Position numbers and translations under genes: made by a program
In this document: in pieces, positions 17,501-50,985 of the stretch
Layout: each line of letters starts with the position of its first letter
How positions within the stretch are numbered: position 1 is the stretch's first letter
NCBI GenBank assembly: GCA_039621445.1
Contig: CP154954.1
Span: 30,384,395 to 30,448,394 of the forward strand
Direction of reading: 5' to 3'
DNA from: Euglena gracilis
Taxonomy: Eukaryota
DNA: 64,000 nucleotides
The notes under the pieces: generated by a model
What the model was told of the DNA's origin: nothing
The model's database searches: none
What the model saw: the letters and a program-made list of their open reading frames with translations, nothing else

Positions 17501-18114
17501 CTGATCTCCTCCTCCTGGGGTGGAACAAAGGGAAGCATCTCGCTGTTTGATGTCACCATTGAACACCCGCTGGCCCCATCACGGTGGCCTCTGAACTTGA
17601 CCCGAGTTCAGCGTACTCTACCAGACGCTGAAATGCACAAGAGAACACAAGCTGAAGAACGGTGCGCCCGCCACCAGTGGGAGTACATTGGGGCTGCATT
17701 TAACCCCTGGGGGTGCACATGACCGGCAGCCTCCAAACTCCTACGCGATGTCCTACGCCTCGCGACCAATTCATATTCTGGAACAGCCAAACAACGAAAA
17801 TTTCAGGAATTGACCGAAAACTTGGCCATCACACTGGCCCGTGCAGTTGCACGGCAGCTGCGGTTGGCCGAAAGAGCCACAGATCGTATGATCCTGAACT
17901 CGTAAGGTGAAAATGCTCCCCGTTGCACCAGCCTTCCGGAGCCACAAAGCCGGAGAACACCGCGCATGCACACTTCACACCTCTCCACCCATCACTCTCT
18001 GCTTGGGCTTTGCCCTTGCTCTCACCGCTCGACCCACACTCCTTCGTTGTATATAGCCTCGCACCCTCGAACACTCAAAATCCAGTAGGCTGTGCCACTG
18101 GTCGGTGGATTCGG
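14533..18114 (+). mobile_element. CRE-like non-LTR retrotransposon family 2, near-complete, in IR1 spacer
   Basis: 971-aa ORF 14635-17550: N-terminal Cys/His cluster, RPIAVG, DVSNAFN, QGDTCGP, YLDD, CPLC..DHLLAC, RHN, RDADLL. Frameshifts at ~17548 (DVTIEHP) and ~17720. Family-B tail at 18087-18114. Confidence 0.92.
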
Positions 18115-20529
18115 GGGGGGGGGCAGTTGCCCAAGGCTTTCCCCGCGGGCACCTCTCGCCGAGGGGTGGGGGGCAATCTTCTCCCCAAGGCCTTCCCCTC
18201 GGGGGGGGGGGTGATTTTCATCTATCACCGAAAGGATTTTTGGTGATAATGGACCCTCCATTCCCTTCACGGTTGGGAATACCGTGGGGGGGGGGGTGGG
18301 GCTGGTTTTTATCCACTCAAAAAAAAGATTTTTTTGAGTGGTGTTGGACCCCCATTTCCTTTCACGGTGGTGAGAACCGTGGGGGGGGGGGAGGTGGGCT
18401 CGGTGTGGTTGGAATAGAATATATGGCCTAATAGATTCCTCCACACCGTTCCGCCACTTATGCACGATCTCGAACAATGTCATCGCAATTGCGTTGCAAA
18501 AATTCAAAGTGTTTTTCATTCCCATACCAAGGAAAGCGAGAAGGAGGGGGGGGTGAAACCCCCGACTTTCGTCGCAAGGGGGGGAGTGACAACCGTTTGA
18601 GGTCGACCGCCGGGCGGCGGAGATTTTTCTTTTTAGAAGGCCATATGATTATTGGCGGTTGGAAAGGATGTAATGCCGAAACGGCATTACCAGGCCCATG
18701 TAAGGTAAGCGCCTTCATGGAGCCTGGACAGCACAGGAGACTCATACACAATACACTGGTAGCGGAAATCGCTAAACAGCCCTGGGATGAACCTGGGTCT
18801 GTGTCACACACTCTGCGCTCTGGATGGAAACATCCAAGAGCCCTCCCCACCCGCCACCCCCTATACCAATGGCCGTGCGGACGGAATCCGTCTGCATGAG
18901 GTAAGCGCCTCTTATCACGTCGTGAAGGAGCTACTGCTGTGAAGGCCTTGGCAGCCGGGAAACCTGGCAAGCCGCTAAGTGACACACAGCACACAGCGCG
19001 CACGCCGTAATAATAGGCCAAGTTGTCACTTTTCGGCCCTAAGGCCCCTTAAGGCTGCCAGACAGCAAAAATTCTGTTCTGGCCTAATCCAGCCCCCCCT
19101 CTCCTCCCTCCTTTCCCCCAAAGCTGTCGCCGGCAGTCGGTTTTGTAAGTAGGCTTTTGTTTCCTAGTGCGGATATGACCGCCTAGGAGCCCTATCCGGG
19201 TATGACCAGGATAGGAGCCTGCCCCCCCCCCTTCCACCCCTCTCCCCTCGGGTTTTCAGCGAATACGCTTGACCAACCCCGCGTGCCTTTGGCACACCCA
19301 AAGTGGGTGTATGGGACACTTTGTCAGGAAACCTGCCAAGGCCCTTTTCCCACAGTGTGCATTTTCACACCTCACCTAAGCCGAAACGGCTAATAGGTAA
19401 CCGCGAAACGCGGCTAACCTTTTGCGCGTTTTTTGGCTTGGGTGGATGCCACTTGACGACCGTTTGAAACCGTGTATTGGGGCTCTGGCTTCATGCCCGA
19501 ACCGGCGTTCTGGACGCCGGTTCGGCGCAGAAATTTCTGCGCCGAACCGGTGTCCAGAACGCCGGTTCGGGCGGGAAAACGGCGTCCTGGGGACCGAAAA
19601 TGAAAAGTGCCAAAAAGTGTCCAAAATGGTTTGTAGACATGAGGCAATCATATCTGAGCACTTTTTGGGGGGGTATTTGGCCAGAAATTGGGGTATTTTG
19701 TGCAACAATTTCCATTTGGCCAAATCTGGGGATTTTCTGAAATAGAATACCATGCAGCAGGGCTGAAATCTAAGGCCATCTAAAACCCTTGAGAAGGGTT
19801 ATCGATCAAGGGGCAACATGGCAGGTGAACAGTGGATTTTGGAAATTGCGAAAAGGGTCCAAAAATCGTAATTCTGAAAAAACCCAAGGGGTCCAGCTAA
19901 AATTTCCTAACCATAATTCTGAAAAACCCAGGGGAGGGTCCAACCAATTTTGAAAACACCCAGGGGGGCCAAAATTTCCCAACTGTAATTAACATTTCCC
20001 AACAATTTTGAAAAATTCCAAGGGGGGGTCCAGCCAAAATTTCCCAACCATACTTCTGAAAAACCCTGGGGGGGCTCCAGCCAATTTTTTTTTCAACCGT
20101 GTTTGTGAAGAAACCCAGCCAAAATCTCTGAACCGGAATTCTGAAAAAAGGGGGGATCAAATCCCAACCATAATTCTGGAAAAAAAAAACCAGCGGGGTC
20201 CAACCGAAAATTCGGCATTGCAAATCTGAAAAAATCTGGGGGGGGGTCCAGCCAAAATTTCCCAACCGTGATTCTGAAAAAACCTAGGGGTGGTCCAACC
20301 AAAAATTTTTTCCAAATTGTAATTCTGAAAAAAAAACCTTTCGATTGATGGGTAACCTGGCATCAGACGGATGAAAACTTCAATCGGCCGATCGACATGG
20401 CCATGAGCCCAAAGGATCCCAAAAATGCCCAAAAATGTTCAGAAACTGGGTATTTAGGGCGAAATTGGCCTTTATTCCTAAAACGCCGGTTCGGGCGTGA
20501 AGCCAGAGCCCCTAATCCACGGTTTCAAC

Positions 20530-20651: not shown

Positions 20652-22467
20652 TTCGTATCAGAGGCCGGGCGGCGAAGATTTTTCTTTTTAGAAGGCCGTT
20701 TTAAGGGCGGTTTAGCTCTAATTTTAAGGCTTTCTAAAGATTTCCATTAAAATTCCCTCTCCTAGGGCGCCCATGGTTTGGGTGTGCAAGGAGAGAGAGA
20801 TTGAGTGATGCTCGGTATTCCCAAAGGGTGATTTTGGGTCTATTTAGCATGTTTTTAAGCTTTTTCTGCATTTTTCCTTTGGTTTTAAGGGAAAATGTTG
20901 TATTTGGTGAGCGCTTGCAAGCGCTTGGAACAGTTTTTTCTGAGATTGGCGCTTGAGTTTGCAGGGGTTTGCAAAACTCAATAATGATGGAATTCAGCAT
21001 AATTTATCAAAATCAAACGGGGAAACCTTGATTTTGACCTGGGTTGGTTGATTTTGATGCAATGGGGTTTTTCTTCCACCCACGGTGGGTAGCACAGCTT
21101 CACCCGAACCGTGCCCCGGGCCCAGGGAAACGTCTCTTTTGGCCCTCGCCACAATGGGCAAGCATTTGGGTTTTGAGGAGGTTGTCTCCATTTCACTTTC
21201 TCGCCTGTGGAGCTACACTCCGCCAGGGGGCATTAGCCCTAGGGTTCGAGGCACTCGAAGTCCTCCATCCCTTGCCACATCTCCTGATGCTTGGCGATGG
21301 CGTGCTTGATAGGGGTTGCTTGTCCTTGGTGTCACTGCTCGGCCGAAGCCGCAATGGTTTAATCGTGACACGTCGGGTAGGCAACCGCCGGTGAACCGAT
21401 GGTTCACCGGCCCTTACCCATCAGGCACGCCAGGGTCGAGCCTCTGGTTGCTGATTTCCACCACGGCGCCATCGGAACTTCCCGCCGTACGGCGGCCATT
21501 CCTTACCCCGCCTGGCAGCGCCGTATGCCATGGCTGGTTCAAGTCCCGTGCACTCCCGGCTCGGAGTTTAGCTCATCGGGACTCGAACCCGCGCGTCCAG
21601 AAGATGGTACCGATCGAAGCCGGCCCTCTGTCCGCTGGACTAACGCAGGAGATTTGAGGGCGCTTAGGAATCAGCGCACTCAATCCTAAATTTAACTGCC
21701 CATCAAGGGAGAATTCGTAGAAATTGAGCATTTCCTAATCCGCGCTGCCTCAACCAACCCTCATGCCCTGAATAGTTTATGCCTTGAATTGTTTGTTTTG
21801 CTTGACATCATCTGAGTTTTCTATTGAATTCAAACTACAGATCTCTGACCTACCGCCTCCAGTCCACTCCGTCAATTCCGCCCCTACCCCTACCTCACCT
21901 ACCCCCTTCCCCCTTCGCCCCTACCCCAACTTCCAAGGCCAGGGGGACGCCCCTGTGCCTCCCATGTGTCAAGAGGCGCCCCATCCCGCCCGCCGCCCAG
22001 GGCCCCCTGAGGGGGACGCCCCCATTCCGAGATGCGCCCAACCTGTGAGCAGCAAAGGCAATGACCTGGGGGTGATGCCGCCAAGGCCGCCGCCCCCAGC
22101 GAGCCTGGGCGAGTCTCCCTGCTCCTCCCCCCGGAGGGCGGCCCCATCCCTCCAACGCCCCCGCAGCACCAGCAGGCTGGCCCACACGTCAGCGGCGTTT
22201 GCGCTGGGCTATGATCCGCGGGAGACGCCACCAAGGATCTCTCCCTCGGTGAGCCCGGGCGGGCCTGTCCCTCCCCTTGGTGCTGCCGCAGTCTCCACTG
22301 CCGGCCTATCCTCCACCCCTTTCCCAAGATGCGCCCAACCTGTGAGGACGAGCTGCCAACCCGCCCCATCGGCTGCTCCCCTTTCCAGCCCCGTCCCAAC
22401 GTTCCATCCTCACATCCACAGCTGCAGCTTCGTGTGTCAATTGTCACCATTTTACTACCAAGGGTCT

Positions 22468-22597: not shown

Positions 22598-23022
22598 CAT
22601 AGCTGGCACTTCGTTTAAAACGAAGTCAAAAAAAAACACGTTTTTTTATATAAAAAAAACATGTTTTTTTAAAAAAAAACAAAAAAACGCCATTGAGGGT
22701 CCAGGGCAAAAAAAATTTTTTGCCTTTAATTTTAGCTTTTTTGCCCATCCTCGGTCAGAGAAAGACACCAAATTTGGGATGTTTCAAGTTGAAACATCCC
22801 AAAATGGCAGAAAAATGCCCTATTTTGACCATTCTTGTTGAAGACAACCAAAAGTATTGGTTTTCAAGTCATTTGAGCTAAGATTGGTTCACCCTTGCGA
22901 TCAAAGGCAAAATTTGGACCATCATTTTCCCCTTTGTTTTTTTTGCCGTTTTTTTTGCCCGTTTTTTTTAATAAAAAAAAAACGTTTTTTTTAAAAAAAA
23001 ACTAAAAAAAACGCCAGCTATG
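22598..23022. mobile_element. hAT-like MITE (mirror of 8547-8969)
   Basis: TIR CATAGCTGGC/GCCAGCTATG; TSD TCTCCCAC at 22590-22597 and 23023-23030. Confidence 0.85.
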
Positions 23023-24071: not shown

Positions 24072-25564
24072 GAAGACGGTGGTGGGGCGAACCGAATCCA
24101 CCGACCAGTGGCACAGCCTTCTGAATTTGTCAGAGTTCGTGGGAGGGGAGCTATGTACAGATGGGCGAGGCCCATGGGCAGCATAGGTATAAGCGGTGGC
24201 GGAAGAGGGGAGAGGAGAACGGTCGAGGGTGAGGGGGACTGCGTGTGCTCGAGGTGGTCGGGCGGGTGCCCGGCTGCCGGGTTGGTGAGGTGCTCCGAGG
24301 GCGCCCCAGTTTGTGCTGGCGCTCTCTCGGTGGCGCTCCTTCTGTGGCGGGTGCGTGCGGTTGGGTGGCCTTGTGGGCCACCATTCGGCGTCTGTGGTGT
24401 TTGTGTTCCCTGGCTGTTGTTGTTGTAGTTGTTGTTGTTTGTTTAACGGAGCAGGTGCTTGGGCTGCAGGAGGTGGAAGACCTCTCGTAGCAGGGCGATG
24501 GCCACGTTCTGATAAATCTCTGCCTCCTTGATTTCTCGTTCGGCGCCCTGTTGCCAGGACGAGGCGCGTTTGGCCACTCGGCCTAGCGTCTTGGCTGTTT
24601 CGGGGCCCATGCCACCCCATGTCCCCAGGGCGAACGGCGTGAAGCTCCACCCTGCTTGCTGGCAGGGGATGGTGTACTTCTGCTTCTTGGCCTCCTCCCT
24701 TCTCTTTAGGAAGGACCTCCAGCGCTCGCGGGTGGCATTCTGTTCTGTGGTCTGCCATCCGTGGCAGACGGTGACGTCCAGTGCCGTTGGCTTTCCCTCA
24801 GACCAGCAGTCAAGTAGGAGGTCCGCCGGGCGGAGGTGACTGTCGCGGGCCGTCGGCAGGGAAACTTCCTTCTGTACCCGCTGTCCGATGTTGGACAAGG
24901 TTTGAAATAGCGCGTCCTGTACAGCGTTGTGGCGGGTTGCGAAGTTGTTCCTCCGGCAGCAGAGGAGGTGGTCGCCCTCCTTGTCCAGGGGTTGGCCGCA
25001 GCCTGTGCACGGCTGGCTGATGTCCGTCAGCACCGGGAGGCCCAACCACCATTTTAGACCCGGGGTATAGTCTTCGCTGGAGAAGGTGGTATGAGAGTTG
25101 TTCGAGGGGCAGGCCGCCATCCAGCCGTGTCCGAAACCCGTGGCCTGTTCCAGCAGGCGGTTCTGGTCCCGGGGCCGAGCCTGGTCCACTAGGTCGTCCA
25201 TTGCCTTCTTGCCCAGCTCGTGATTCCACCACTTCTGCTTCCGCGGCTCCTGGTCCGCGGACGCGATTCGCTGTGGGTTGTTAAGGAAGGTGGTCACGGT
25301 GGCATGGTTGGCACCCAGCCTGCCCCTGAGGTCGTCCAAAACGGGTGTGACCAAGGTAAGCTGCGGGCTGACTGCGTAGTCCGGCACTCCCACCCGCCGG
25401 GCCCCGTCTGAGTAGAAATCTGCGAGGCAGGAAATCCTTGCCGCGGGTTGGGTGTATGACGGTATGCGAAGGCCGCAGCCGCCACTTGACAGGGGCAGCG
25501 AGGCCTGTGTCCGCTGTTGCGAGTTTAGCGCCGTGCCCAGTATCCCAGTATCAGTATCAGTGCC
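24072..25564 (-). mobile_element. 5'-truncated CRE-like element (family 3) inserted antisense into family 1
   Basis: 14-bp TSD CAGCCAGGATCAAC at 24058-24071 and 25565-25578. ORF 24443-25393 has CTGC..DHLLCC, RHN and RPADLL..LDVT..K. Family-B tail at 24076-24119. Empty site near 7517. Confidence 0.92.
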
Positions 25565-28500
25565 CAGCCAGGATCAACACGATTTGAACAAGTTTCTACG
25601 CGAGACGCTACTGTCCTTTCCAAAGGCTTCTGCACCAGGTCCGGATGGCTTGAGACCACAACACCTCCAAGACGTGGTGCGTGTGGATGCAGGGGCATCT
25701 TCATTCGTGGTTGCTGCTCTATGCATGTTCACGAAAGCGGCACTGGATGGGTCCTTGCCTGCACGAGCAATGCCGTTCATCTCTTCGGCTACCTTGATTC
25801 CTTTGAGGAAGGAGGGCCCCACTGGCAGCTTGAATGTCCGACCCATCGCCGTGGGAAACACCGTCCGCCGCTTTGTGGGGAAGTTTGCCATGATGTCACC
25901 GTGTGTGAGGCAGCGAGCAGCAGAACTACACCCGCAACAATGTGGAGTGGCCACAGAAGGAGCGTGTGAAACCATAGCACAGGGCCTGCAATCTTTCGTA
26001 CAACATGCACAAGGTGATGCATGGGGCATCCTGCAGGTGGACTTGCAAAATGCCTTCAATGCAATCGATCGGCAAGCAATGCTTCATGCTGTACGCAAAC
26101 GCGCACCTGAGCTCGAAGGATGGGCACGACTTTCTTACGCGTCACACTCCGCCCTCTACACCTACGGACATCGTATGACAAGCGAACAGGGTGTGCAACA
26201 AGGCGACCCCCTTGGCCCGCTCTTCTTTGCTCTGGCTTGGCAAGATGTGGTCCAAGCTCTCCCAAAAGACCTCGCCTTGAACGTGTGGTACCTGGATGAT
26301 GGACACCTTGTCGGGTCGATGGATGCCTTGGCTGCTTCACTTGCCACAATCAGCCAAAGTTCCGTGCACCTGGGGGTGCAATTGAACCTCCAAAAATGTC
26401 GCCTGTGGGGCCCTGCGCAACACCCAACTCCGCACGGAAACCATTTCGACATGCTGCGATCAATACCCCGTGTGCCATGGGCACCTGATCACGGATTGCG
26501 GGTCCTTGGCTTTCCGGTTGAACACCCCTCTTCGGCAACGTTTTGCAAGCGCGAGATGCAAGCCATGGTGGACAAGCTAGAGGAAGCGTGCCACGTCGTC
26601 AGCAACCTCAGAGACCCGCAATTTGAGCACATTTTGCTGCGATATTGTCTTGATGCCTGCAAAGTGATGCATTTTCTGCGGACGTTGCACACGCACGCCC
26701 TCCAAGGACCACTCCAAGAGGTAGCACGAGTGATCCGGAGAACATGGGATGACATTCTGGGGCAGCCTGCCGCCAATGATGCACAGTGGACGCAATGCTC
26801 CCTCCCGCTCCGGATGGCGGGGCTGGGAATCAAGGACCCCCTTGTCCTCCAAGCACCAGCCAGAATGGCGGGTATCTTATGTGCCCAACACCGCTCACAA
26901 CTGCTGCGGTTTCCGCCAGAGGCATGTGCTTTGCCTTCCGACTTCACGATGGTGGCCACAAAGTTGCAGGACACGCTAGGCCCGCAGTTCGCGCCACTGC
27001 AAGAATGGACTCAGCGAAACTTGCCCATCAATTGTGAAGACGATCATCGAAGGCAGCAGTGGTGGACGGAAAAGGTGCATCAAGCCCGGAAAGATTCCTT
27101 GAAGAACACGCTTCCTCAAAGAGACAAGTGCCGCTTGCGCCTGCAGTCAATGCCCCACACAACCGCATGGTTGCGAACGGTCCCGAACAAGGGCATTGGA
27201 ACAAAAATACCCGCATCAAAGTACCGTTTGCTCATCCGATGGTGGCTTGGTGCCAAGATCTTGCCGGGCTCGTCCGGCGCCGCATGCCCCTTGTGTGGTG
27301 ACTCCCTGGATCCCTTTGGGGACCATCTGCTATGTTGCAAGAAAAACAAGCTTGTACAGCGCCACAACGCTGTGCGAGATGCGCTGGCGATGGTCCTGAA
27401 GGAGAATGGCGTGCACACAAGGACAGAAGTCACAGTCGGGGGAAAGATGCGCCCAGCAGACATTGCGCTCCAGGGAGTGGATCCCTCAGGACCACTGGCG
27501 GTCGACCTTGTCGTGTTCCACCCTCTCAGAAAAGATCTGTCCTGGGACGAAAGCGCAGCCCTCAAGAACATGGCAGCGATGGAGAGCAAGAAGATCGCAA
27601 AGAATCAGCCTGTGTGTGAATCGGCTGGTTGGTTGTTCAGCCCACTCTCCTTTCACCCATGGTCAGGCTTGGGCCCACTCGGCTCCGGGCTCCTCAGCCG
27701 CTTGGTAAAGCAGGTGTTGGGTGACCAACAAGGGTGGGCAAGGCAACACCGGGCGGCAGACATATGGCAACGAATATCGTCAGCTTTGATGGCTTTCGTG
27801 GCGGAGCAGCTATCTGCAGCCACAGCGGCAAGAGGACATGATGAGCTGCCACTGACAACCACATCGCAGGAGGTGCAACCGGCTCCAAACAAAGCACAAG
27901 GTGTGACCGCAGTGGCGGCTGTGGACATGGAAGGATGGCAAAGAGTGCTCCAATCGGAAGAAGGGACCTTGGTCGGCCCCATCCGCATCCAATGCATGCG
28001 CCCGAGGTGAGACACCCGGCAAAAAGGAGATGGTAGCACCATCCCCCCCCCAAAAAAAAACCGCAGGGCCCACGCCCCTCTGGGCAAGGCCAACGAGAAT
28101 CGAAGTGAAACATGACAAGTGACAGGCGGGTGCAACGGCTCGCGGTGACCCGTCCCGACGGCCAAGAACAGCACGCCGACACGGGCGACGCGCTCGCACG
28201 GGCGACGCGCGGGCACGACACGCGCGAGACACGTGCGAGCCGTGCCGAGCCGTGCCGAGCTGTGCCGAGCCGTGCCGAGCCGTGCCGAGCCGTGCCGAGC
28301 CGTGCCTAAAAAAAAAACCCATCAAGGGCATCAAAATCATTTTCCTCTCACAGGGTTTTCCTCTTTTTACTCCTTGGAATTGTCAATTGGTGCAATCACA
28401 AACAATTATCATTGTGAATTCAAGTGTTGGAATTACATTTGCAAATGGAAAGTCCAATTGAGAACAATCAATCATTTGAAGAAGGTGAGGTTTGTCTTCC

Positions 28501-28979: not shown

Positions 28980-29051
28980 TGCCCCCGGCGGGATTCGAAC
29001 CCGCGACCTACCGGACGCACGCTAACCACACGACCGCTATACCACGGGGGC
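28980..29051 (-). pseudogene. Mirror copy of tRNA-like element
   Basis: Reverse complement of 2450-2521. Confidence 0.7.
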
Positions 29052-31687: not shown

Positions 31688-34600
31688 TTTTTTGAACAAA
31701 ACATTCACTACGGGTAGCACAGCTTCACCCAGACCGTGCCCCGGGCCCAGGGAGACGTCTCTTTTGGCCCTCGCCACAAGGAGAAACTCCTCGTGACTCC
31801 CTGTGCGGCCACAGGTCGCCGGTAGATACTATGGGTGTAAAGTACAGAAAGTACAAAGGCATGTCCCGCGGTCAGTGGTTAGAGGAAAATGGGAAAGTCC
31901 CATCTTCAATATATACGGCGGGGAGAGCGGGGGGTGTGTGCTTTGCTTGCCACTGTTGGCGTGTTTGTGTCATTTGCTGATTTTTCTTGGTGTTTTTGTT
32001 TTCAGAGCCGTCCGAGTGTGGTAGGTAAGAAAGATGGCCCCGTGGCCATTGTTCTGTGTGGGCCACCGAAGGTGGTAGAGGTGATAGAGGTGGCAGGTGC
32101 ACTGGATGAAGTCACAGTCAGAAATACGGGGAATGCGTACCAGCGCTACTGCAGTCAAGCAGTTGCTCAGGACACTGTCCCCATGCCAGTTGTCGTGCCA
32201 ACTCGCGCATCAAAGCCATTCCAAGCCCCTGCCATGCACTGGCCTCCACACCCCGCCTCTCCCAGCCGTTATGTTGGCTTGTTTGGAGGCGGATGCATGT
32301 GGAGACGAATCCTTGGCTTGCTTCACTCATGCCACCGTAACAGTCCATCACCAGTGGGATAAATGTCCAACCTCGTCGCTTGCAAGGCTCCCCATATTTG
32401 GCGATTTTGTCTCCTGTCGATTGTGCCAATTGTCCACCTGAGCTGGAGGTGACCTGGAGGGTGCAAGTGGGTGCCTCACTGTGACATCAATGGCTACGGG
32501 ACCATTTGCGTCGAATCGAGTGATAAAAACATCACCCGGTCGTGTTCCATCCTCGGCTTTTTCTTCTCGACGTGCAGGGAAGCCAGCTCGTTGTGCCAGA
32601 TTCAAGACAAAGCTTTGCACTGCCCCGTGCCGCCGAACGAGGTTGTTACCGTGGCAGCAGACGAGGTGGTGGCCGGCTGTGTCAAGTGGGCTCATGCATC
32701 GAGGACATCCAGGAGAGTTGCTTTCTTCTGTTTTTACCACAGGAGCGCCAAGCGTCCATTGGAGGAGGGCAACAACTTCTTTTGTGGGAACAAGGGTTTT
32801 TGTGCCAGCACAGGGGACTGCACACGTCCAGGCCATGGCATGAGGCCTTGTTTGGCAGGAAAATTGAATGGCATCGGATCCGGACAGGGACTTTTCCAGT
32901 TTCTTTTGGCGCAGAATTGAGCAGACGTTTCCCCAGTGTTTCTGTGACACCATCTCTCGTGGTAGTTGGGTGGCACGGGTGCAGTCATCAGTTAAGGCCT
33001 GCAGGGGCTGACCTTCAACCACAACGATTTTGAGCAATGTCAGTGCGGAGTCAAAATCCGGTGGTTTCATATTGCGGATTACAAAGTCTGGCAGCCCCAG
33101 CATCGTTTCAGCCCTTTGGAGAAAGTCCAGTTGGGCTGACCATCGTGCAGCGAGTCGGCATTCCTGCGGATCCTTAATTCCTAGTCCCCCCTGTGACCAC
33201 TGGTTGTCATCAACGATGCAACTCAGTGTGTTTCGTAAACAGTGGCTCAGCAACAAGCATTGGTCCCAAGCTAGAGGCAGTGGAGTTCCCCTCAATAAGT
33301 CATTGACGCGACACGCATCCAAACACTGTCGCAAAAGGGTGTACTGGACATGGGCACTTGGCACAAGCTGTAGGATATTGCATGCCTTCAGAACCATTTC
33401 AACTTGTGGAGCCCAGACAGTGGAGGCGAACCCCCCCCCCCTGCTGGGTGGCAGACTGGCAGTCCAAGGTCCTTGAGGCCACTTGCTTCAGAATATGCCT
33501 GCACTGGGATTTGTTGGAGCGGGGTTGTGTTGGTTGGGAGGCTGGACCATTCCATTCCAAAGGCAGGTCCCCACAACCGACACTTGTACATATTCAGGGA
33601 AACCCCAATGAGGGGTCCTTCGGAGATCAGGCGGTGAACTTTGGGGTTTTCGGGCGGGACCCCCCCACCCCCCCTCTTCATTGGAAATTCATGGACGAAC
33701 TTCACCGGTGAACTTCACCGGTGAACTTCACCAGTGAAGTTTCTCCATGAAATTCCTTTAGGGCTGCAATTGGACTTTGCAAATGCCTTCAACTGCCTGC
33801 GCCGTGAAGGTATGTTGGACGCTGTTCGAGAACGCTGCCCTGAGATGACAGCATGGATGGAGAGCTGCTACAGTGAGCATTCCACTTTGTACTATGGTTC
33901 AACCTCCTTCCGCAGCAAAAGTGGCGTGCAACAAGGTGACCCATGTGGTCCTGCGGCGTTCGCAATTGCAATTCAAAATCTGGTTGAAAAAGTGGGTGAG
34001 CTGGTCGGATGGCAAGCATGGTACTTGGACGATGCCCATCTCGTGGGCACCCTAGAACAACTGGAAACAGCAGTCCAATACATTCTGCGTGAAGGAGGTT
34101 AGGCAGGGGTGGGGGTGGGGGGGGTTGGGGGCTCCGCCCAACAAGCTGCTGAAGCCCAATGGCGACAATGGAACAAGGATCAGAATGGCCAACGCCAAAC
34201 TGTCCAGGTAGATTGTTGTGAACTGCTGTTCTCACCACTTCCTGTCTCATGATCATTTTTCCCACCAGACGACGCAGGCACTCGCCCGCTGCTATGGGCC
34301 TGGTTCCCTCTTCTTCTGGAGTAGGTGGGCATTGGTTGCCAAAATCATCGGTGTTTTTTTGCTGCCTTCACTTTCCGCAAGGCTGTCAGTCTGGCTGCTG
34401 CCATGATTGCTGCAGGTCCTTTTGGCAGCCCATTGTCAATGGTGCGGTAACAGAAGGTCGTGAGTTCGTCCAAAAGGTCATCTGCATGGCAACCTGCATC
34501 ATGACCCAGCAAACACCGAAGGTGGTCGGGCCTCAAGCCAGAGGGGCCTGGGGAGGATTCTGGGCCAAAGCTGAAGACTGCCTTTCGCACTATGGTCCGG

Positions 34601-35340
34601 CGTTGTTGCATGTCTTCCTCAGAAGTGGCAGCTGGTAGCGAACGTCTCATGGTCGCCGGGCCAAGTCCAGGAGGCGGTTCATGTGGATGTAATTGCCGGA
34701 GGCGTTCGCGTACCAAGGGGTTGTCGGGATCTTGAACGCCCTCAGAAGTCAACAAATTGCAGGCTTTGGATACTGCACCCCTGCCGACCAGTCGTTCCAG
34801 TCTGGAGACAAATTCTTCTTTTGTTACTTCTTCCTCTTTCGAGGCAGCCAGTCTGGTACGTGGTCTCTTTCGTGTGTTAGTGCCTCCCAATGGAGAAGAG
34901 GTGTCCTTCTAACTCTCCAGCGTCGGGCGGCTTAGGTATTGTCGTGCACGAGCCTGCAGGATGCGACCAAGACGTGCCCAGTGACCGTGCCCGCCACGGC
35001 CGAAGGGAGCCAGCACTGCCTTGGGAAAGCACCAAAGGGCGTGCAAGGCTTCCCAGGTGCTTTGTTCGTTCAGGCGGCGCATGAGTGTGCAATAGACCTC
35101 GGCCACAGCTTGGATGGCCCCGCGAGGGATGAGGCCGATGGAACCACGGCGATCGTGGGCGATTTCATCCCAAGTTGGATGGAGGTCAGGGCATGGTCCT
35201 GAAAGGGGGTGCGTTGCGGCATCAATGTTCATTTCGATGCTCTGAGGCAAATGAGCGGAGGCAGGATTGGATGGCAGTTCGCTTTGAGCTGGGTCTCCCC
35301 CAATAAGGTCCAGAAGGAGCTGTTATAGATTCCGGCCATC
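31688..35340 (-). mobile_element. Degenerate CRE-like element family A with inverted RT core
   Basis: Minus-strand pieces 34909-35250, 34345-34890 (SPGPSGLRPDHL), ~34100-34300 (RPIAAG...QFGVG), 33388-33625 and 32348-33397 (CPRC..HHLVCC, RRH, RPGD). RT motifs A-C lie on the plus strand at ~33758-34100. Confidence 0.85.
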
Positions 35341-35401
35341 TTGCGAAGTGGTTTCTAAAAGTGGGAGCACTTGCACAGGTCACCACTGTCGCTTGGGGCG
35401 C

Positions 35402-35449
35402 GGAGAAGGAATTTTATCCTGTGGTGACATTCAGCCCAACCCAGGCCCC
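35402..35449 (+). other. 2A-like motif GEGILSCGDIQPNPG|P (E->Q variant)
   Basis: LSCGDIxxNPGP next to the 5' end of the family A element, but on the opposite strand. Confidence 0.7.
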
Positions 35450-35930
35450 GCAGCACCACCACAGACTGATATCGACTTCAGTGAGGATCCGGCGAGGGCT
35501 GTCGGCTTCCTGATGGCAACTGCCTCGGTCCCAGTCATGGTGGGCATGCGTTCGGGCCAGCTCATCGTTTTCCTTTGGCGTTCAAATTTCGGAGGTCTGC
35601 AGAATCTGGGGGCTTTGGCTCCTGGGGTTGTTCTGGTTTTATGGTGAATTTTCGCTGCCAGGGTAGGCTGTGTGCTGTCTTTTGCAGGAGTGTAAGGCAC
35701 AAGCACTTTTCTTTGTTTGGCCGACGTTGGGTGGTTTTTTCCTATCAGCGGAGAGGGAACCTGGGGGTTGTCAAGTTCATTTTGCTGAGGTGGGAAGGTT
35801 GCAGGCCAGCAGAATCTGACAGAACTGGCTGGCTGGGGGGCCACTGTTGCACGCCAAAATGTGGAGGAACATGGTTTGCCAGTTTGTCGGGGGCTTTTCA
35901 GGCTGAGAGCAACAATGGTGTCAGGGGGGG

Positions 35931-36615
35931 CAGGGTTGGCGTTTTTTTGTTTTTTTAAAAAAAAACAAAAAAACATGTTTTTTTTTAAAAAAAACGCAAA
36001 AAAACATGTTTTTTTTTCGAAAAAGCAAAAATTGACCTTTTTCCTTGCGAAATGACCATTTTTTTTGAAGAAATTTTTTTGCGGGTGGTTCGGGTCACGA
36101 GGGGGGGGGGGTCACGGGGGGGGGTCACAGGGGGGGGTCACGAGGGGGGGTCACATTTTCGGTGGCCAGATTAGAAATCACCGAAAAAGAATTTTTGGGA
36201 TAAAATCCTTTTTAGGCTCCAAAATAGGAATCCCCCAAACGAAAATTAGGAAATCTACCGGAATATTTTGTCAAATTAGGCATCACCAGCCAAGTTTTTC
36301 AGAAAAAATGGCCAAAACGGGTCTTAGGTCGGGTTGGGGGAGGGGGGTCATGGGGGGAACACCCCCTGTGAAGTTTTTTTTTCAAATGTGTGAAAGTATT
36401 TCCAAATCTGTGTTTTCTGGTGCGAAAATCATGCTTTCAACCCAAAAAAATGAATGTTGTAGAGATAAAAAATGCACTTTTTCCCAAAAAAAACATTGCA
36501 AAATTTTTTTCCCCCAAACCCTCCATGACGTTTTTTTTGTTTTTTTTTAAAAAAACATATTTTTTTTAAAAAAACATGTTTTTTTTGTTTCAAAAAAAAC
36601 AAGCCGTCAACCTTG
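35931..36615. mobile_element. hAT-like MITE (TIR CAGGGTTGGCG/CGTCAACCTTG)
   Basis: Related direct copy at 52536-53236; flanked by G-runs. Confidence 0.7.
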
Positions 36616-37321
36616 GGGGGGGCCTTTGAAGGCCCATGGCCTTTGCCGGCCACTGGGACAAAATGCTGCAACAGGAAAAAAATGTGTCACAGGGGGGCCT
36701 TTGCAGGCCCATGGCCTTGGCAGGCCACTGGAGCAAAATGGTGTTGAGGCCACTGGGGCAAAATGGTGCAACAGACCGAAATGTTGTCACAGGGGGGCCT
36801 TTGCAGGCTCAGTGACTTTGCAGGACACTGGGGTAAAATGGTGTCACTTAGGGGTTGGGGTGGCAAAATGTTTTTCAATGTCAAGTCAAAATTGCTGCAA
36901 AAAGTGTCAACAGATGAAAGGAGTTTCCCTTCAGGACACAGGTTTTCACTGGCACTTTCAAACAAAGCAAAAGAGAGTGCACAGAGAAGGAATGCAAACA
37001 GGTTCCAAGTGGCAGTGGGGGCTTACAACAGATGTTGGTGCAGCCACTAGCCCCGAGTCTGGCAATGAAAACCAAAACTGTGAAAAGATGTCTGATGCCT
37101 GGTGTGAGATGACAGGGGTACGGATGGAGAACAATGTTTGAAAGCAATCTGGGGGGTTGGTTGGGGAAGATGTCAGCACCAGAAGGTTTCCCTGCATGCA
37201 AATGGAAAGGTTGGTGATGGGTGACCTTTGGAGACCCAAAGAATGGTGGTGTGCATGGTGGGTTTGCAGTGGTTGGGCATGATAGAAGGGGTGGGTATGC
37301 AGTGATTGGGGGGCTGATCAT

Positions 37322-37480
37322 TGGGGGGGGCCTTTGCAGGCCCGGGGGCTGGGGGGGCCTTTGCAGGCCCAGTGGCTGGGGGGGCCTTTTCAGGCCCAGT
37401 GGCTGGGGGGGCCTTTGCAGGCCCAGTGGCTGGGGGGGCCTTTTCAGGCCTAGAAAGGTTGGTGGGGGCCTTTTCAGGCC
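37322..37480. repeat. 27-bp minisatellite (GGGGGGCCTTTGCAGGCCCAGTGGCTG)
   Basis: About 5-6 units, with related motifs at 36616-36830. A separate 30-bp triplication lies at ~37585-37676. Confidence 0.85.
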
Positions 37481-37776
37481 CAAAGAAACCAGATAAACCA
37501 TAAAGGCCTCACCGGCCATAGAAAGCATGATGAGCTCCTGCAGTAACACCAAAGGGCTGAAGCCCAAAGCTTGTAACATGAATACCGCCTTCTTCCGCCT
37601 GCACCGGCAGGACGTCTGCCTTCTTCCGCCTGCACCAGCAGGACTTCTGCCTTCTTCCGCCTGCACCAGCAGGACTTGTAAGGACTTTCGATGATAGTTG
37701 AATTCTTGACTTGGATACTTGACCCCACCAGGAGCTTTCAATTGTCCGCCATGTATTATGCGAAGAAAAATACACA

Positions 37777-37801
37777 CGAAAAAAAATAGACACTCAGAAA
37801 G
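37777..37801 (-). other. Euglena-type spliced-leader exon sequence (relic; not an intact SL-RNA gene)
   Basis: CTTTCTGAGTGTCTATTTTTTTTCG matches 25 of 26 nt of the E. gracilis SL as I recall it. Followed by TG rather than the GT donor. Confidence 0.88.
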
Positions 37802-37810
37802 AAACTCAGA

Positions 37811-38034
37811 TTTTTTGGCAAACACCACGGTGGGTAGCACAGCTTCACCCAAACTGTGCCCCGGGCCCAGGGAAACGTCTCTTTTGGCCCTCGCCACAAG
37901 AGGAACCCCCTTGTGACTCCCTCTGCCGCCACATGTCGCGGGTAGATTATACTGTGGGTGTAATGTACAAAAGAGCTACTGAGTGATACTTGTTCAGGGT
38001 GGGTGTGGAGGTCAGTGGTTAGCGGAAGATGAGC
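37811..38034 (-). mobile_element. 224-bp 5'-truncated family-A-related CRE 3' fragment
   Basis: Homologous to ~750-949 including the double-hairpin tail and A6. 13-bp TSD AAAGAAACTCAGA at 37798-37810 and 38035-38047. Confidence 0.85.
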
Positions 38035-38047
38035 AAAGAAACTCAGA

Positions 38048-41000
38048 AACATCCACTCACCTTGGTGATTCTTTATTTTGTGAGGCTTTGGTTTAGGTCC
38101 TCCCCACCGATCCCCCCAACACTTTTGTTAACTTGGGTTTCGTTGAAACAGATGGAACTCATTTTGGTCCGACCCCTTTTTCAGAAATTGGTTCAAATGC
38201 ATAATATCAAATGGACGAGGTGTGAGATGCTGTTTTTTAGGACCTGGAGGGGTCGGCACCAAACCTGCCCCTGGGGTGGGACAGGGGATTCGGGGGGTCA
38301 ATTTTGTCCCAAAAATGTTAGTTCTTCGCACTGAAAAAAAGAGGGACCCCCATCCACCGTGAGTGGGGTGGGCTGAGCTGGGACCCCTCCCGCCGTGAAA
38401 AATAATTTAATGAAAAATAATGATTCCTTGAGATCCACCCAATGGATGATGCAATGCGTTCTGACAATTCCTCAAATGGGTCTCAAGGCAGGGGGGCACA
38501 AGCGCCTTTTCTGCATTTGTGTATTTTTTTGATTTTTGGCGGAATTTGCTAGGGGCTGTACAGAACTGTGTGGGGGGGGGGGCAGGGCGGTCCTTTGAAA
38601 CCGGAAGGGTCAGGAACGTTTTTTTTTTGTTTTCTTAAGGACTGCCCCCCCCCCTTTCTGCCGACCAAGGGCTGGACTAGGATTTGAACGGGGTCAAAAA
38701 CTCAAAAGTTAAAATGTACATTTTTTGATGATTTGGGTGGATGGACGATGGTCCAAGGATGCCAGGGCTCATTTTTTTCCTGGTGTCGACCTCTTCTTGC
38801 CGAAAAATACCAATTTTTCTTGCCCACTTCCTTGGTTTTTTGTCCTTGACTGTGCTGGAACAGCGGAGTTTTTTTTTAAATTTCCTAAAGGACCGATGTG
38901 GGGTGGAGTCCCCCCCCCCCCGCCAGCTTTCCATTTTTCTGGGGGGGGTGCCAATTTCTACGCCAAACTTTTCCCTCGGCTCCCCTGGAATTTTTTTTTG
39001 GTCCCCAAGGGGGACCCTTCGTGCCAAGTTTGCCCCTCCCCCTAGTTCTGCTGGGAATTTTTTTCCAACTTGGAAAAAATTGGCACTTTGAGCCTGAGGT
39101 TAATTTTTCCTCTTTGGTGGAAATGTGTTCTCAGTATGAGCTTTTCTGCAATCATCCATAATTTTCTTGAAGGTTCCAATGTCATCCCACCCAACTCACC
39201 ACAGCCCCCATACCTCCTTCCTTTGCCCACCAACCACCCATGAACAATGACCACCCCCCAGTTGGGGGTCACAGTTTCGGGGGTACATACGACCACCCTC
39301 CTGGCCGGGGTTGAAGATGGCTTTGAAAATTGGGTTGTTTTTTGGCACGGCGTCCGATCACCCCCTGGTCAGGGGTTGTGGGTTGGGTGGCGTGTACGAC
39401 CCCCCCCCCACTGACATGTGAACACCCAGGGCTCATGTACCCCCTCTGCCCACCGACCGGGTTCCTACGACCCCTGACCCGGTGTGCCACTTTGAAGAGT
39501 CGGACAAAGGGGTGCTCCCGCATTTTTTGAAATATTTTGCGCCTTCTGTTGTAGAGCGGCACCCGTTGGGTCCTTTTTACAGCGTTCCCGCCGAACGCTG
39601 ACCACTCCCCCCTCTTTGCCGTCTGTAATGAGCCCGAAATACCGCATTTAGTTTTCTCAAATCCAGGGCTGTTATCTTCCATCACATTTTAGCCTCATAT
39701 TCCCTTTTAACGATAGCATGGAAACTTGGCCTCCTTCAAAGTTGGATCCTCGCCCAGAGGCCAGATATATTTATGGTTGTTGATGCCCCAAGGTTGCATA
39801 ATTCTTTTGAAGAATTGCTGGATGTTGGACTTTTTTTTGCAGAAGAGACTCAATGATATGGATTGCTGTTAAAAGCATTCAATATGCCACAGAAGCAACA
39901 ATATTGCATATCAATTTATCATTTCAAAAAAATTACCATATCAATGAAGGGTTGCATCAAATTCTCGAAATTTGATGTGCAACATTTTTCTTGCAACAAT
40001 CAGTCTATTGCTTAAGGCTTCACAATACCCGGGGTGCTGGCCAAATTTGGCAAGCGAAATCCGGGGTCTTCTAGCAGGGCTAGCTGGTGAAAAAAGAATT
40101 TCACAGTGACCGGCGTGAAGTGCCGAAATTTTTTGGAGGACCCCAAAACTTGCCAAACAGGCTCATTTTTAGCCATTTTGGGGATTTTTCTAACAAAATC
40201 AGCCAAAAAATGTATTAAAAACTTGATTTCCATCCCGGAGAAATGAATTTTTCCTGGGGGGGCGGACCCCCCTGGGGGGGGGGGGAGGCTGGTCCAGCAA
40301 GTCCTTTTTTCCAGTGTCTAGTAAGATGGCCAACCAGTGACCCTCCTGGGGGCCTTAAGCATGCATAGACCAAGAATATGTTATTTTCAATGTTTACAGG
40401 TATGTGCACAGATATTCATGCATAATATGAAATCCCAGGTGACAAAAGTTGTGATCCGAACAGGGACCAGGACGTTTGTTAGATTGAGGGGGGGGGGCGC
40501 AGGTATGGACGTGCGTACATATTTGCACACATACCTCCCTCCCTCCCAATGGAAACTGTCATGCCTGAGAATCCTGCCCGTGAAACTGTCAGGGTCCCCG
40601 TCAACAACAACCTGTCAAGGAAGTTGCCAGGGCCCCTGGTGCTGGCCAACCTGTCAGGGTCTCTTTTTTTTTCGCTTGAAATGCCCTTCCCAGGAAACTG
40701 TCAAGGTCGCCCCCTTGGAAACCAGGGTCTTGGGTGCTGACCAACGTGTCATGATAGGAAGTTGGCCCACTATGGGCCAAACCCCCTTGGCCCAACAGAA
40801 GGGCAGCCCAGAGAGCGCGCCATAGATGGCACTTCGTTCAAAACGAAGTCAAAAAAAACACGTTTTTTTTAAAAAAAACATGTTTTTTTAAATAAATAAA
40901 AAACGCCATTGAGGGTCCAGGGCAAAAAAATTTTTTGCTTTTAATTTTAGCTTTTTTTGCCCATCCCAAACACAAAAAGCTTAGTTAAATTCTGCCTTTT

Positions 41001-42268
41001 GTTCCCGCGCTCTGTCAAAAAAGGACCTAGTTTGGAATGGTTTCCAGCCAAAATGGCAGAAAAATGCCCTATTTTGACCATTCTTGTTGAAGACAACCAA
41101 AAGTATTGGTTTTCAAGTCATTTGAGCTAAGATTGGTTCACCCTTGCGATCAAAGGCAAAATTTGGACCATCATTTTCCCCTTTGTTTTTTTTGCCGTTT
41201 TTTTTGCCCGTTTTTTTTTATAAAAAACAAAAAAATCGTTTTTTTTTTGGGAGAGCACGCCGTCGGCCAGCCGTGTGACTCACAGGAAAATGACCCGAGC
41301 CATAGCTCACCAATACAAAAACAATTTCGCCGCCAATCCCCTGTCAAGGTCATGTTCATCGTTCGTGGAGGCTGCATTTTTGCCCAGTTTCGTCAATTTT
41401 TGTCAATTTTGTCAATTTTGGGACTTTTTTGACCAATTTTGACCATTTCAGCCGATTTTTGGGTCATTCCACAGTCATTGTGAAGGAATTTTGCCAACAA
41501 ATTATTCGAATGACTAAAAATTGTTCGTCGTGGTCAAAATCATTGGTGGTCCATTTTCCACAAACTGACAAAAATTACCTGTTATGGACGGAAAAAGGCT
41601 GAAATTTTGTGTGGAACGGTTTCAAGTGACTAAAAATTGCCCAAAGCAACCCCTCTTGTAGGGCTTTGCACCCCAAATTAGGCATTAATCACTCAAAGTT
41701 AGGAATTGGCCCACCAAATCCCCTCAAAATTAGGAACCTTTTCACTAATTAGGAATTTACCACTCAAAAGAAGGCATTGGCACACCAAACTTGGGATTGC
41801 CACTCAAAATATCAGCATTTTACACCCAAAATTAGGCATTTGCCGCACATTTGCCACATGAAAATAGGAATTTGCACCTCAAAATTAGGAATTGGCACAC
41901 TAAATTAGGAATTTACCTTCCAAAATTTGGAACAGGCACACCAAATTAGGCATTTGCATCTCAACAAAAGCTCAACGACAGGACCCGGCTTCCGTCACGC
42001 CGTCGGCCAGCCGTCGGCCAGCCGTCGGCCAGCCGTGTGCTCCCCCTTTAAAAAAAACAAAAAAAAACACCAGCTATGGAGCGCGCACAGCCCCCCCCAC
42101 ACGCAAGGCAGCCCGAGACACGCAACGAGCACGCCCCAGCGCACAAGGGGCAGGGCAGCCCCAGGCCGCGCACAACAACGAGCCCCCCCCCCCAGCGCAC
42201 AACGGGAGGGGACCGCACGTACCCAAGGCAGCCCCCCCCCCCCAGGGGGAACCAGTCCAGGCAGACCA
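38048..42268. repeat. Left arm of inverted duplication IR2
   Basis: 38048-39650<->48015-49615; 39930-40820<->43760-45083; 42079-42268<->43583-43770. Confidence 0.9.
40821..42078. mobile_element. hAT-like non-autonomous element, longer relative of the 22598-23022 MITE
   Basis: TIR CATAGATGG/CCAGCTATG; TSD GAGCGCGC at 40813-40820 and 42079-42086; empty site near 43760. Confidence 0.85.
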
Positions 42269-47923: not shown

Positions 47924-49609
47924 AACAAAAGTACCTGCAGCGGGGGACCCGGGCGATTATTTCCCCCTGGTTTCCGGCTCCGTGGGGGGGGGGAATAATC
48001 AAAAAGGTACAGTAAATGCAGTATTTCGGGCTCATTACAGACGGCAAAGAGGGGGGAGTGGTCAGCGTTCGGCGGGAACGCTGTAAAAAGGACCCAACGG
48101 GTGCCGCTCTACAACAGAAGGCGCAAAATATTTCAAAAAATGCGGGAGCACCCCTTTGTCCGACTCTTCAAAGTGGCACACCGCGTCAGGGGTCGTAGGA
48201 ACCCGGTCGGTGGGCAAAGGAGGGGGTACATGAGCCCTGGGTGTTCACATGTCAGTGGGGGGGGTTGTACACGCCACCCAACCCACAACCCCTGACCAGG
48301 GGGTGATCGGACGCTGTGTCAAAAAACAACCCAATTTTCAAAGCCATCTTCAACCCCGACCAGGAGGGTGGTCGTATGTACCCCCGAAACTGTGACCCCC
48401 AACTGGGGGGTGGTCATTGTTCATGGGTGGTTGGTGGGCAAAGGAAGGAGGTATGGGGGCTGTGGTGAGTTGGGTGGGATGACATTGGAACCTTCAAGAA
48501 AATTATGGATGACTGCAGAAAAGCTCATACTGAGAACACATTTCCGCCAAAGAGGAAAAATTCACCTCAGGCTCAAAGTGCCAATTTTTTCCAAGTTGGA
48601 AAAAAATTCCCAGCAGAACTGGGGGGAGGGGCAAACTTGGCACGAAGGGTCCCCCTTGGGGACCAAAAAAAATTCCAGGGGAGCCGAGGGAAAAGTTTGG
48701 CGTAGAAATTGGCACCCCCCCCCAGAAAATTTGGAAAGCTGGCGGGGGGGGGGACTCCACCCCACATCGGTCCTTTAGGAAATTTAAAAAAAAACTCCGC
48801 TGTTCCAGCACAGTCAAGGACAAAAAACCAAGGAAGTGGGCAAGAAAAATTGGTATTTTTCGGCAAGAAGAGGTCGACACCAGGAAAAAAATGAGCCCTG
48901 GCATCCTTGGACCATCGTCCATCCACCCAAATCATCAAAAAATGTACATTTCAACTTTTGAGTTTTTGACCCCGTTCAAGTCCTAGTCCAGCCCTTGGTC
49001 GGCAGAAAGGGGGGGGGGCAGTCCTTAAGAAAACAAAAAAAAAACGTTCCTGACCCTTCCGGTTTCAAAGGACCGCCCTGCCCCCCCCCACACAGTTCTG
49101 TACAGCCCCTAGCAAATTCCGCCAAAAATCAAAAAAAATACACAAATGCAGAAAAGGCGCTTGTGCCCCCCTGCCTTGAGACCCATTTGAGGAATTGTCA
49201 GAACGCATTGCATCATCCATTGGGTGGATCTCAAGGAATCATTATTTTTCATTAAATTATTTTTCACGGCGGGAGGGGTCCCAACTCAGCCCACCCCACT
49301 CACGGTGGATGGGGGTCCCTCTTTTTTTCAGTGCGAAGAACTAACATTTTTGGGACAAAATTGACCCCCCGAATCCCCTGTCCCACCCCAGGGGCAGGTT
49401 TGGTGCCAACCCCTCCAGGTCCTAAAAAAAAGCATCTCACACCTCATCCATTTGATATTATGCATTTGAACCAATTTCTGAAAAGGGGTCGGACCAAAAT
49501 GAGTTCCATCTGTTTCAACGAAACCCAAGTTAACAAAAGTGCTGGGGGGATCGCTGGGGGAGGACCTGAACCAAAGCCTCACAAAATAAAGAATCACCAA
49601 GGTGAGTGG

Positions 49610-50370
49610 ATGTTTTGTTCAAAAAAGAACCCAACATTACACCACTTCTCAGACGCTCAATCCACCTCCATCATTTGCGGTGAAAGGATGAAATGTGACA
49701 GCACAGGAACACGCAAGGGAGGCACAGAGGTTGTGTGAAGCATGAGTTGGCTTATCGACTGCCCCCCCCCATTTGGTTGATTATGTGACAGGTTTGGGAG
49801 GTGTCCCAGTGGTGATGCCTTCACCTGGGAATTTACAGCTGGAGGTCTCGGGGGAGGGCCTAGCCCCCTTGGGGGGGGGGGTAGGGCCCAGTCCCCCCTG
49901 ATGGAGGAGTCTTTCACCTGTCGTTTTGGCTGCCCGACCCCTGTCAAAGTACCAAGATGTGGTATCATCAAGCCCTGTAGGTGGGGGGGGGGGCTTCAAA
50001 CGTGGCAAAGCGAGGTGGCGCCACGATTCCTATGCAGTGCCGGAATCGGTGGTACGGCAAGCAATCCTTAACTTAACGTGGATGCCTTCAATGAGGAGAC
50101 CACGGCCCGATTGATGAAATGACCCTCCATGGTCCGGGTCCAGATAATGAATTTTTTTCAAGATAAAAAATCTTCAAAAACCTCTGGTTTTTTTTAGATT
50201 TTCAGAAAAGCGAGGTTTCCTTCTGCCAGAGAAAACAAATTTCACAAAAAAAAATCCGAAAAGGGGTAGGGGGGTATCCGAGACCCTTTTTCTCGACCCC
50301 CCTAAACGACCCTCCCCTAAGTGACCCTCCGGGGTCCTAGCCGGGACCAAAGGGGGGTCATTCAGGGGGG
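49610..50370 (+). repeat. Third copy of segment 933-1690
   Basis: Direct repeat of the IR1 left arm, joined to the outer end of IR2 through ATGTTT microhomology. Confidence 0.88.
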
Positions 50371-50985
50371 GTAATGGTACACCCAGATACCACCTCCCCC
50401 CCCCTAATTGACCATGGGACCTCTCCACGGGACCCCCCTTTTGGTCAATTAGGGTGGGGTTCAATTAGGGGGGGGGGCGTCAATTAGGGGGGGGTACTGT
50501 CAATTAGGGGGTGCTTCGGCACAAAATCCCCCCAGGCAGTCAATTAGGGGGGGGGGGGCGAAAAAAATTTCCCCGGGGCGTTTGGTCAATTTGGGGGGGG
50601 TCAATTAGGGGGGGGGGTGGTAGGTGGCGAGAGTCATCAGCCCCCTTGGTGAGTGTGCATAGGTGTGTTTTGTGCTCCTTGTGGTTTATTGTTGTGAGGA
50701 AGAGCCGAAGCGTGACAGGGTCCGACCTCCGGCGCCCTTCGCCTGATTGTTGTGAAGGACCGCGGACCCGGAGATCTCTTTTGCGCCGCGTGCGAAAATG
50801 GTAGCACTTACCGCCCGGGAGGCGCAAAAAGCCACGTCCGTGACAAACGCCCAGAAAGTGTCATTTTTGGCTCCGGTAGGCCCGTTCCGGGGTCCTAGGT
50901 CTGGATAGCCAGGGGCCTCGTTTGTTGCTTTGATTCACCGAGAGTTTGTGATTTTGAGTGTGTTTTTTTTCCCTCCTGCAGTTTC

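Follow-up and report, generated by a model that had tools for sequence, protein, structure and literature searches.

A genomic spliced leader of Euglena gracilis that may mark the start of a LINE retroposed from trans-spliced RNA, with a second tail of the same family beside it

The spliced leader (SL) sequence found in the window, the whole 64-kb stretch of Euglena gracilis DNA analysed here, is somewhat better explained as the 5' end of a LINE RNA that had been trans-spliced and then retroposed than in any other way, the 224-bp piece next to it being a later second insertion. A sequence-only reading of the same DNA had seen there a CRE-type 3' fragment that hit a dispersed SL relic. That relic dissolves on inspection: the SL forms the 5' terminus of a 6.3-kb LINE of the same family, flanked by target site duplications (TSD), and it is followed by an AG-truncated second SL. 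The features on which the argument is built are as follows.

37777-37801, minus strand: SL, nt 2-26 of the 26-nt SL (pattern and alignment match)
37761-37776, minus strand: second SL, 5'-truncated (nt 11-26), 14/16 identical, abutting the full SL
37604-37760, minus strand: D, transcribed 5' leader module of high depth with 30-bp tandem repeats (contig and RNA depth)
31710-38046, minus strand: LINE-F, 6,337-bp insertion with A(F) nested at its 5' end (empty-site comparison, tblastn)
32124-35259, minus strand: reverse transcriptase (RT) and C-terminal CCHC/RLE coding remnant (tblastn, ORF text)
38047-38057, minus strand: target duplication, left copy, 11 bp, AGTGGATGTTT (alignment of P, LINE-F and C1')
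31699-31709, minus strand: target duplication, right copy, AGTGAATGTTT, 10/11 (three-junction alignment)
48013-50371, plus strand: P, paralog of the target without the insertion (L+R2), serving as 'empty site' (junction 49616/49617)
37826-38038, minus strand: A(F), 5'-truncated 3' tail of the LINE family (BLAST, alignment, contig depth)
37811-37825, minus strand: 15 non-family nt, GTGTTTGCCAAAAAA (contig loose ends at 37826; resembles the 3' flank of the full-length copy)
38035-38047, minus strand: direct repeat TCTGAGTTTCTTT, upstream copy, starting at most 1 nt from the LINE-F 5' boundary
37798-37810, minus strand: direct repeat TCTGAGTTTCTTT, downstream copy, running into the SL
31712-31891, minus strand: C1', family tail at the LINE-F 3' end (twin C1 at 746-927, plus strand)
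10412-10486, plus strand: C2, 75-nt tail core, independent insertion away from SL (twin at 21080-21154)

The SL core TTTCTGAGTGTCTATTTTTTTTCG matches 37777-37800(-) at 24 of 24 positions. The match is unique in the 64-kb window with up to 3 mismatches allowed, and none of 100 shuffles contained one. The E. gracilis SL of 26 nt given in PMC6242988, ACTTTCTGAGTGTCTATTTTTTTTCG (also a primer in PMC5654406), is identical to 37777-37802 at 25 of 26 positions. Scanning viral contigs for the exact 24-mer gave 0 matches, and no SL was found at the two sister LINE families of the window. An SL RNA gene at 37777-37801 was ruled out, G26 being followed by TGTGTA instead of a GT 5' splice site; a Rfam scan of 37400-38200 gave no match at E ≤ 1 in a collection that may hold no euglenid SL RNA model. 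The SL lies at most 12 nt from the 5' edge of the 6.3-kb insert. Nine additional nt, TCTGAGTTT (SL nt 5-11 plus TT), stand ahead of SL nt 2, and none of the models considered below accounts for them. The sequence TTTCTGAGT is present twice, a count that is weak by itself as 8 of 100 shuffles gave at least two.

The second SL starts directly after the internal AG (nt 9-10) of the SL. Contigs of DNA runs X1 and X4 and raw reads of RNA runs X21 and X24 were placed on 37490-38600 at 85% likeness or more; the contigs come from k-mer assembly, and depth summed over them cannot be read as a copy number. In both DNA runs the consensus restores the two mismatches of the second SL to give 16/16 identity, reading A for G at 37765 (depth 54737/54847 in X1 and 170571/170779 in X4) and G for C at 37773 (6936/7184 and 21741/22049). 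Since nearly all contig depth carries the SL letter at both mismatches, most family members would read SL-CATAATACATGG. The junction between SL and second SL at 37776 has a depth of 309 in X1 and 909 in X4, a few-fold above single flank contigs, so that reads of two studies contain this sequence. Two X1 contigs carry a degenerate version of the full SL, TTTTCTGGGTGTCCCTTTTTTTTTCG, ahead of the leader.

The leader module D that follows has a summed contig depth of 16,820-157,056 in X1, against 89-287 for the low-copy flank at 38060-38600. Its RNA depth is about 100 per direction in run X21. In the stranded run X24 the first mate lies on the plus strand for every mapped read over D, from which D RNA is probably the minus strand. 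Leader and tail are both transcribed, with a single strand only in the stranded run, and 54 RNA molecule ends pile up at 37771, within reach of the SL.

The 6.3-kb unit was delimited by self-comparison. Segment L (38047-39650) recurs inverted at 49615-48013, where it runs straight into R2 (49605-50371), and the R2 segment recurs at 31709-31100 immediately after the C1' tail. The duplications at both edges, together with the contiguous L-R2 of P, identify 31710-38046 as one insertion. Its minus strand carries in order the SL, D, a Pro-rich ORF, AT-rich spacers, a degenerate zinc-finger/RT/RLE ORF, the 3'UTR and the family tail. The RT ORFs of the window itself cover 35259 to 32184 in tblastn and database relatives extend the coverage down to 32124; behind the RT the ORF reads CPRC...H....C...RH...RPGD...IDV. 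Two segments are inverted on the plus strand, 33764-34093 with RT motifs and approximately 35288-35647 with a 2A region. Relatives carry a 2A motif about 100 aa upstream of the homologous point, and the inverted one at 35396-35449 occupies that place, indicating that the LINE continues upstream past 35300. The remaining stretch of about 2.1 kb up to the SL is like the N-terminal part of the relatives in length and unlike it in sequence: searches with 740-850 aa from the N-terminus of P0122 and P0123, the nearest relatives of full length, gave no match in 35650-37777 apart from the inverted 2A motif. What connects leader and LINE body is therefore the single TSD pair and the length, not homology. 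Serial template switching as origin of the whole insert was rejected, as the inner junction at about 35300 has no A-run and the 2A motif lies upstream of it. Pfam gave no match to the LINE-F ORFs 36881-37975 and 32348-33487, and the first of these, a 364-aa frame, was not counted as a gene.

LINE-F has a relative with 47% identity, P0122, whose precomputed Pfam hits are PF05869, which we take to be Dam methyltransferase, PF15247 and RVT_1. DAM-bearing retrotransposons are reported for E. gracilis in a preprint, and P0122 fits this description (bioRxiv 10.64898/2026.05.21.726589).

RVT_1 was detected in 3 of 10 scanned ORFs of the window, carried by two sister LINE families. The nearest solved proteins to the sister LINE at 25416-28010 are R2 proteins (E = 3e-12) and the other sister LINE has no match to solved structures at E ≤ 0.01. 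All three LINE families of the window have a CCHC...RHN...RPAD/RPGD...D arrangement after the RT, comprising a CCHC motif and a PD-D-type restriction-like endonuclease motif; a C2H2-like finger lies upstream. Motifs resembling 2A (GDVEPNPGP, GDIQPNPGP) are found in upstream ORFs of the LINEs at 8965-9717(-) and 35396-35449(+). NPGP preceded by GD(V/I)E/Q occurs at 19 sites in a set of 132 proteins (P0004-P0123 among them), with at most 3 per protein. An A/T-rich motif of the aaaaacatgttttttt type recurs in several copies of the LINEs, where it separates the upstream ORF from the RT ORF, at 8586-8768, 22799-22982, 41048-41232, 35940-36060 and 36540-36600. The window also contains two imperfect inverted duplications with indels, 1-14534 against 32636-18601 (98.6-99.7% identity) and 38047-42268 against 49615-43583 (96-98% identity), which are either real palindromes or assembly foldbacks. 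The unique centre of the first one (about 14535-18600) harbours an open 1015-aa RT/RLE ORF (14503-17550, plus strand). Twin tRNA-Ala(TGC) genes in the palindrome arms, 2450-2521(+) and 28980-29051(-), are the sole Rfam matches in the window.

The piece ahead of the SL is arranged on the minus strand as caccaaggtgAGTGGATGTT - TCTGAGTTTCTTT - insert (gctcatcttccgctaacc ... gctgtgctacccaccgtg - gtgtttgccaaaaaa) - TCTGAGTTTCTTT - CTGAGTGTCTATTTTTTTTCG - TGTGTATTTTTCTTCG - cataatacatgg. The description given by the sequence-only reading is confirmed at its coordinates: a 224-bp tail is present at 37811-38034(-) with an A6 end and a perfect 13-bp flanking repeat, tail and SL are both on the minus strand, and the last 4 nt of the downstream repeat are SL nt 2-5. 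Its attribution of all 224 bp to the family is correct for 38038-37826 and fails for the last 15 nt, the contigs leaving the reference at 37826 (70 in X1 and 63 in X4). These departures place the family end at ...ACCGTG, the tail end sequence being ...GCTGTGCTACCCACCGTG. Agreement among their flanks is only 0.34 and 0.35, which shows that the 133 contig flanks are diverse and have no common sequence; the flank consensus after the tail end starts with AAA at an agreement of only about 0.34. At the same position, 18 RNA reads of X21 run into minus-strand ACTGTCTGTTTTTTTTATAGCCCCTTGAAT, which resembles the SL from nt 12, and X24 is related and noisier.

As the last 15 nt are non-family sequence, the A6 of A(F) is not a poly(A) tail of the family; it is preceded by 9 non-family nt, and LINE-F and C2 have no poly(A). 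Alignment with C1 places GTGTTTG-CCAAAAAA of this region opposite GTGAATGTTTTGTTCAAAAAAG of the LINE-F 3' flank, which suggests that the 15 nt may be a short 3' transduced flank followed by a short A tail. At the other end of the piece, the upstream repeat copy closes with CTTT, 4 nt that align to family sequence as well, and the target duplication of A(F) is consequently 9-13 bp long. The probability that two given positions share an exact 13-mer is about 4^-13 (arithmetic estimate). RNA reads of other copies depart at 38038 into sequence resembling the region upstream of C1. None of the contigs listed bridges the stretch, and no reads that would confirm the two A(F) junctions were found.

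The tail core folds with -30.8 kcal/mol (z = -0.93; 31 of 200 shuffles were as good), which supports no special structure. An exact-pattern scan with the core returned 1 metagenome-contig and 3 viral-contig matches, all unrelated and by chance. Protein searches with the stop-free frame 37601-37975, which spans tail, SL and leader, gave 0 matches among 23 candidates. A tRNA-derived SINE head for A(F), prompted by GGTCAGTGGTTAGCGG on the plus strand, was discarded because that sequence is at the wrong end for such a head and neither a tRNA nor an Rfam match was obtained.

BLAST finds four further tail copies in the window, which form two twin pairs within the large inverted duplication: 786-925 and 31712-31851 (87% over 143 bp), and 10412-10486 and 21080-21154 (97% over 75 bp). 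The window thus holds three independent insertions, A(F), C1/C1' and C2/C2', and the earlier observation that the other insertions are not at SL sites holds for both C1/C1' and C2/C2'. The 3' flank of C2 at 10487-10510, GGTGGAAGAAAAACCCC, is loosely like the LINE-F target at 49605-49640, AGTGGATGTTTTGTTCAAAAAAGAACCC, and may hint at a preferred non-SL target. Summed depth over the tail core 37832-37907 is about 1.0e6 in X1 and 1.5-1.8e6 in X4, and drops in X1 to 1.6e4 at 38022-59, toward the 5' end of the insert. The ratio of tail to flank depth indicates a very abundant, 5'-truncating family.

We propose, as the most probable course of events, that transcription of an R2-type (RLE) supergroup LINE gave an RNA which would have received the SL by trans-splicing like any Euglena mRNA. 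The processed RNA would then have been reverse-transcribed into the low-copy L-R2 sequence, where the 6.3-kb insertion with its 11-bp target duplication is found. The source copy may already have carried a genomic SL, the new SL being spliced onto the AG inside the older one; this would leave SL followed by SL(nt 11-26), a signature of 'recycling'. We infer from this arrangement at least two rounds of trans-splicing and retroposition. The 224-bp piece would be a second, 5'-truncated copy of the family, most simply a later target-primed insertion into the first 12-13 nt of LINE-F, and the 12-13-bp duplication around A(F), similar in size to the 11 bp of the full-length copy, points to such a second insertion. 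With the presence of the SL explained by trans-splicing, the arrangement does not require CRE-type targeting of SL RNA genes. Several points count against the preferred reading, among them the nine additional nt ahead of SL nt 2 and the lack of homology to the relatives in 35650-37777. The window offers no other full-length family copy whose 5' end could be compared for an SL, and a random second insertion starting at the LINE 5' edge is estimated at about 1 in several hundred even within LINE-F. That the repeat starts at the LINE-F 5' boundary allows for some preference for SL-bearing 5' ends.

The closest parallel is found in dinoflagellates: according to PMC5585692, their retroposed mRNAs are recognisable by DinoSL relicts, which may be repeated and contain an AG acceptor within the SL. 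Both there and here a genomic SL stands at the 5' edge of the retroposed unit and a second SL is cut at its internal AG (PMC5585692), and LINE-F has the corresponding features of a retrocopy with an SL relict: a DNA-encoded SL at the 5' boundary of a TSD-flanked unit and an AG-truncated SL downstream. The tagged RNA differs, being a LINE, a high-depth repeat, in a euglenid and a cellular gene in dinoflagellates.

Elements of the CRE clade (SLACS, CZAR, CRE1, CRE2) are described in PMC12278014 and PMC5814959 as sitting in SL RNA genes at nt 11/12. They share with LINE-F an RT, a restriction-like endonuclease, zinc fingers, an association with the SL and a euglenozoan host (PMC12278014 and PMC5814959). 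The set of RT, RLE and zinc fingers is common to the whole R2 supergroup and is thus not diagnostic of CRE. In contrast to CRE elements, here SL nt 2-26 head the element, the target is a non-SL sequence (AGTGGATGTTT, L-R2), and the fragment would cut at SL nt 5/6 and upstream; neither the full-length copy nor C2 nor A(F) lies at SL nt 11/12. No CRE or SLACS name appears among the 120 database matches listed or the 13 of a second search. R2-type LINEs likewise have a CCHC and a PD-D-type motif after the RT and leave 5'-truncated, TSD-flanked copies. The present family differs from R2 in lying outside rDNA, in the 2A-like NPGP motifs of its upstream ORFs and in having the SL as 5' end. Judged from these sequence comparisons, the element would resemble an SL-tagged retrocopy combined with an R2-supergroup LINE, and a CRE assignment finds no support in the insertion site.

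What separates the preferred reading from its rivals is how A(F) came to lie beside the SL. The strongest competitor, which we hold to be clearly less probable, derives the whole from a single event in which the RT, having finished the SL-capped LINE RNA, jumped onto another RNA of the family at its 3' end (or had a read-through dimer RNA as template), 224 nt were copied, and the 5' end was joined through a 12-nt templated filler. The filler would come from the SL junction via T + CTTT microhomology, and the 13-bp repeat would then be no target duplication. The R2 reverse transcriptase is known for end-to-end template jumping, and LINE template switching gives rise to chimeric retrocopies of the U6-L1 type. 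Under such a mechanism the start of the repeat at the top-strand nick of the 6.3-kb insertion needs no coincidence, the A6 run adjoins the RNA 5' end as expected of an end-to-end jump, the 15 non-family nt look like read-through flank, and X1 contigs show 3'-incomplete tail pieces beside SL. The U6-L1 type chimeras likewise combine a 3' piece of one RNA with the complete 5' end of a second one. The perfect 13-bp repeat argues the other way: it flanks the upstream piece, where template switching alone predicts none, and being in the size class of the 11-bp TSD it is what an ordinary insertion leaves. The mechanism also requires both a jump and a templated filler, and no polyA-type junction occurs elsewhere inside the insert.

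Integration directed to the SL, in which the endonuclease would prefer SL sequences including those heading its own older copies and so create head-to-tail pairs, appears unlikely to us. In the variant given slightly less credit still, the family would have kept a loose SL-cutting preference by descent shared with the CRE clade and would re-insert at its own 5' ends into head-to-tail arrays, with SL(3-11)+TTC+SL left behind by a staggered nt 11/12 cut. Tail and SL are only 24 nt apart in 64 kb with one SL and three insertions, for which chance is estimated at about 1e-3, and the TSD-like repeat consists of SL-like sequence. In three X1 contigs, tail pieces that end at 37854, 37881 and 37870 are connected with the SL or with what follows it, 18 X21 RNA reads carry SL-like GTCTGTTTTTTTT after the tail end (agreement 0.74), and the first partial SL copy stops at nt 11, to be compared with nt 11/12 for the CRE/SLACS site (PMC5814959). 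The residual SL targeting proposed by the sequence-only reading is nevertheless not borne out: 2 of the 3 independent insertions lie away from SL, the 70 and 63 flanks agree only to 0.34 and 0.35, and the implied cuts fall at SL nt 5/6 and 13 nt upstream instead of 11/12. The three joint contigs moreover lack the last 28-55 nt of the tail, with undefined intervening sequence, and none is listed for X4; the presence of the SL has its separate explanation already. Of the proposed 3' fragment at an SL 5' end there remain the RT/RLE family, the shared orientation and the TSD-like repeat, without the SL targeting. That the arrangement arose by misassembly or by chance, in a region rich in repeats and palindromes, is highly improbable. 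The window does have two large inverted duplications and small inverted pieces within the LINE, and the stretch is unspanned among the contigs listed, but exact 13-bp and 10/11-bp repeats occur at boundaries set independently by homology and reads of two studies contain the junction of SL and second SL.

No report of an SL-headed LINE or of SL relicts in Euglena was found at the level of titles and abstracts, a scope mostly outside the subscription literature. If the preferred reading is true, a very abundant LINE of Euglena would turn read-through transcripts into capped mRNAs by SL trans-splicing and have the processed RNA copied back into the genome. CRE and SLACS elements borrow the promoter of the SL gene; the LINE 'promoter problem' would be addressed here in a different way. 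The 'recycling' of SL relicts would extend from dinoflagellate genes to a euglenozoan transposon, and SL followed by AG-truncated SL would provide a simple tag for locating, in the genome of Euglena, copies that are full-length and recently active, as well as retrocopies. With a second copy placed head-to-tail at the SL, it becomes testable whether the association of these elements with the SL in Euglenozoa began as tagging or as targeting.
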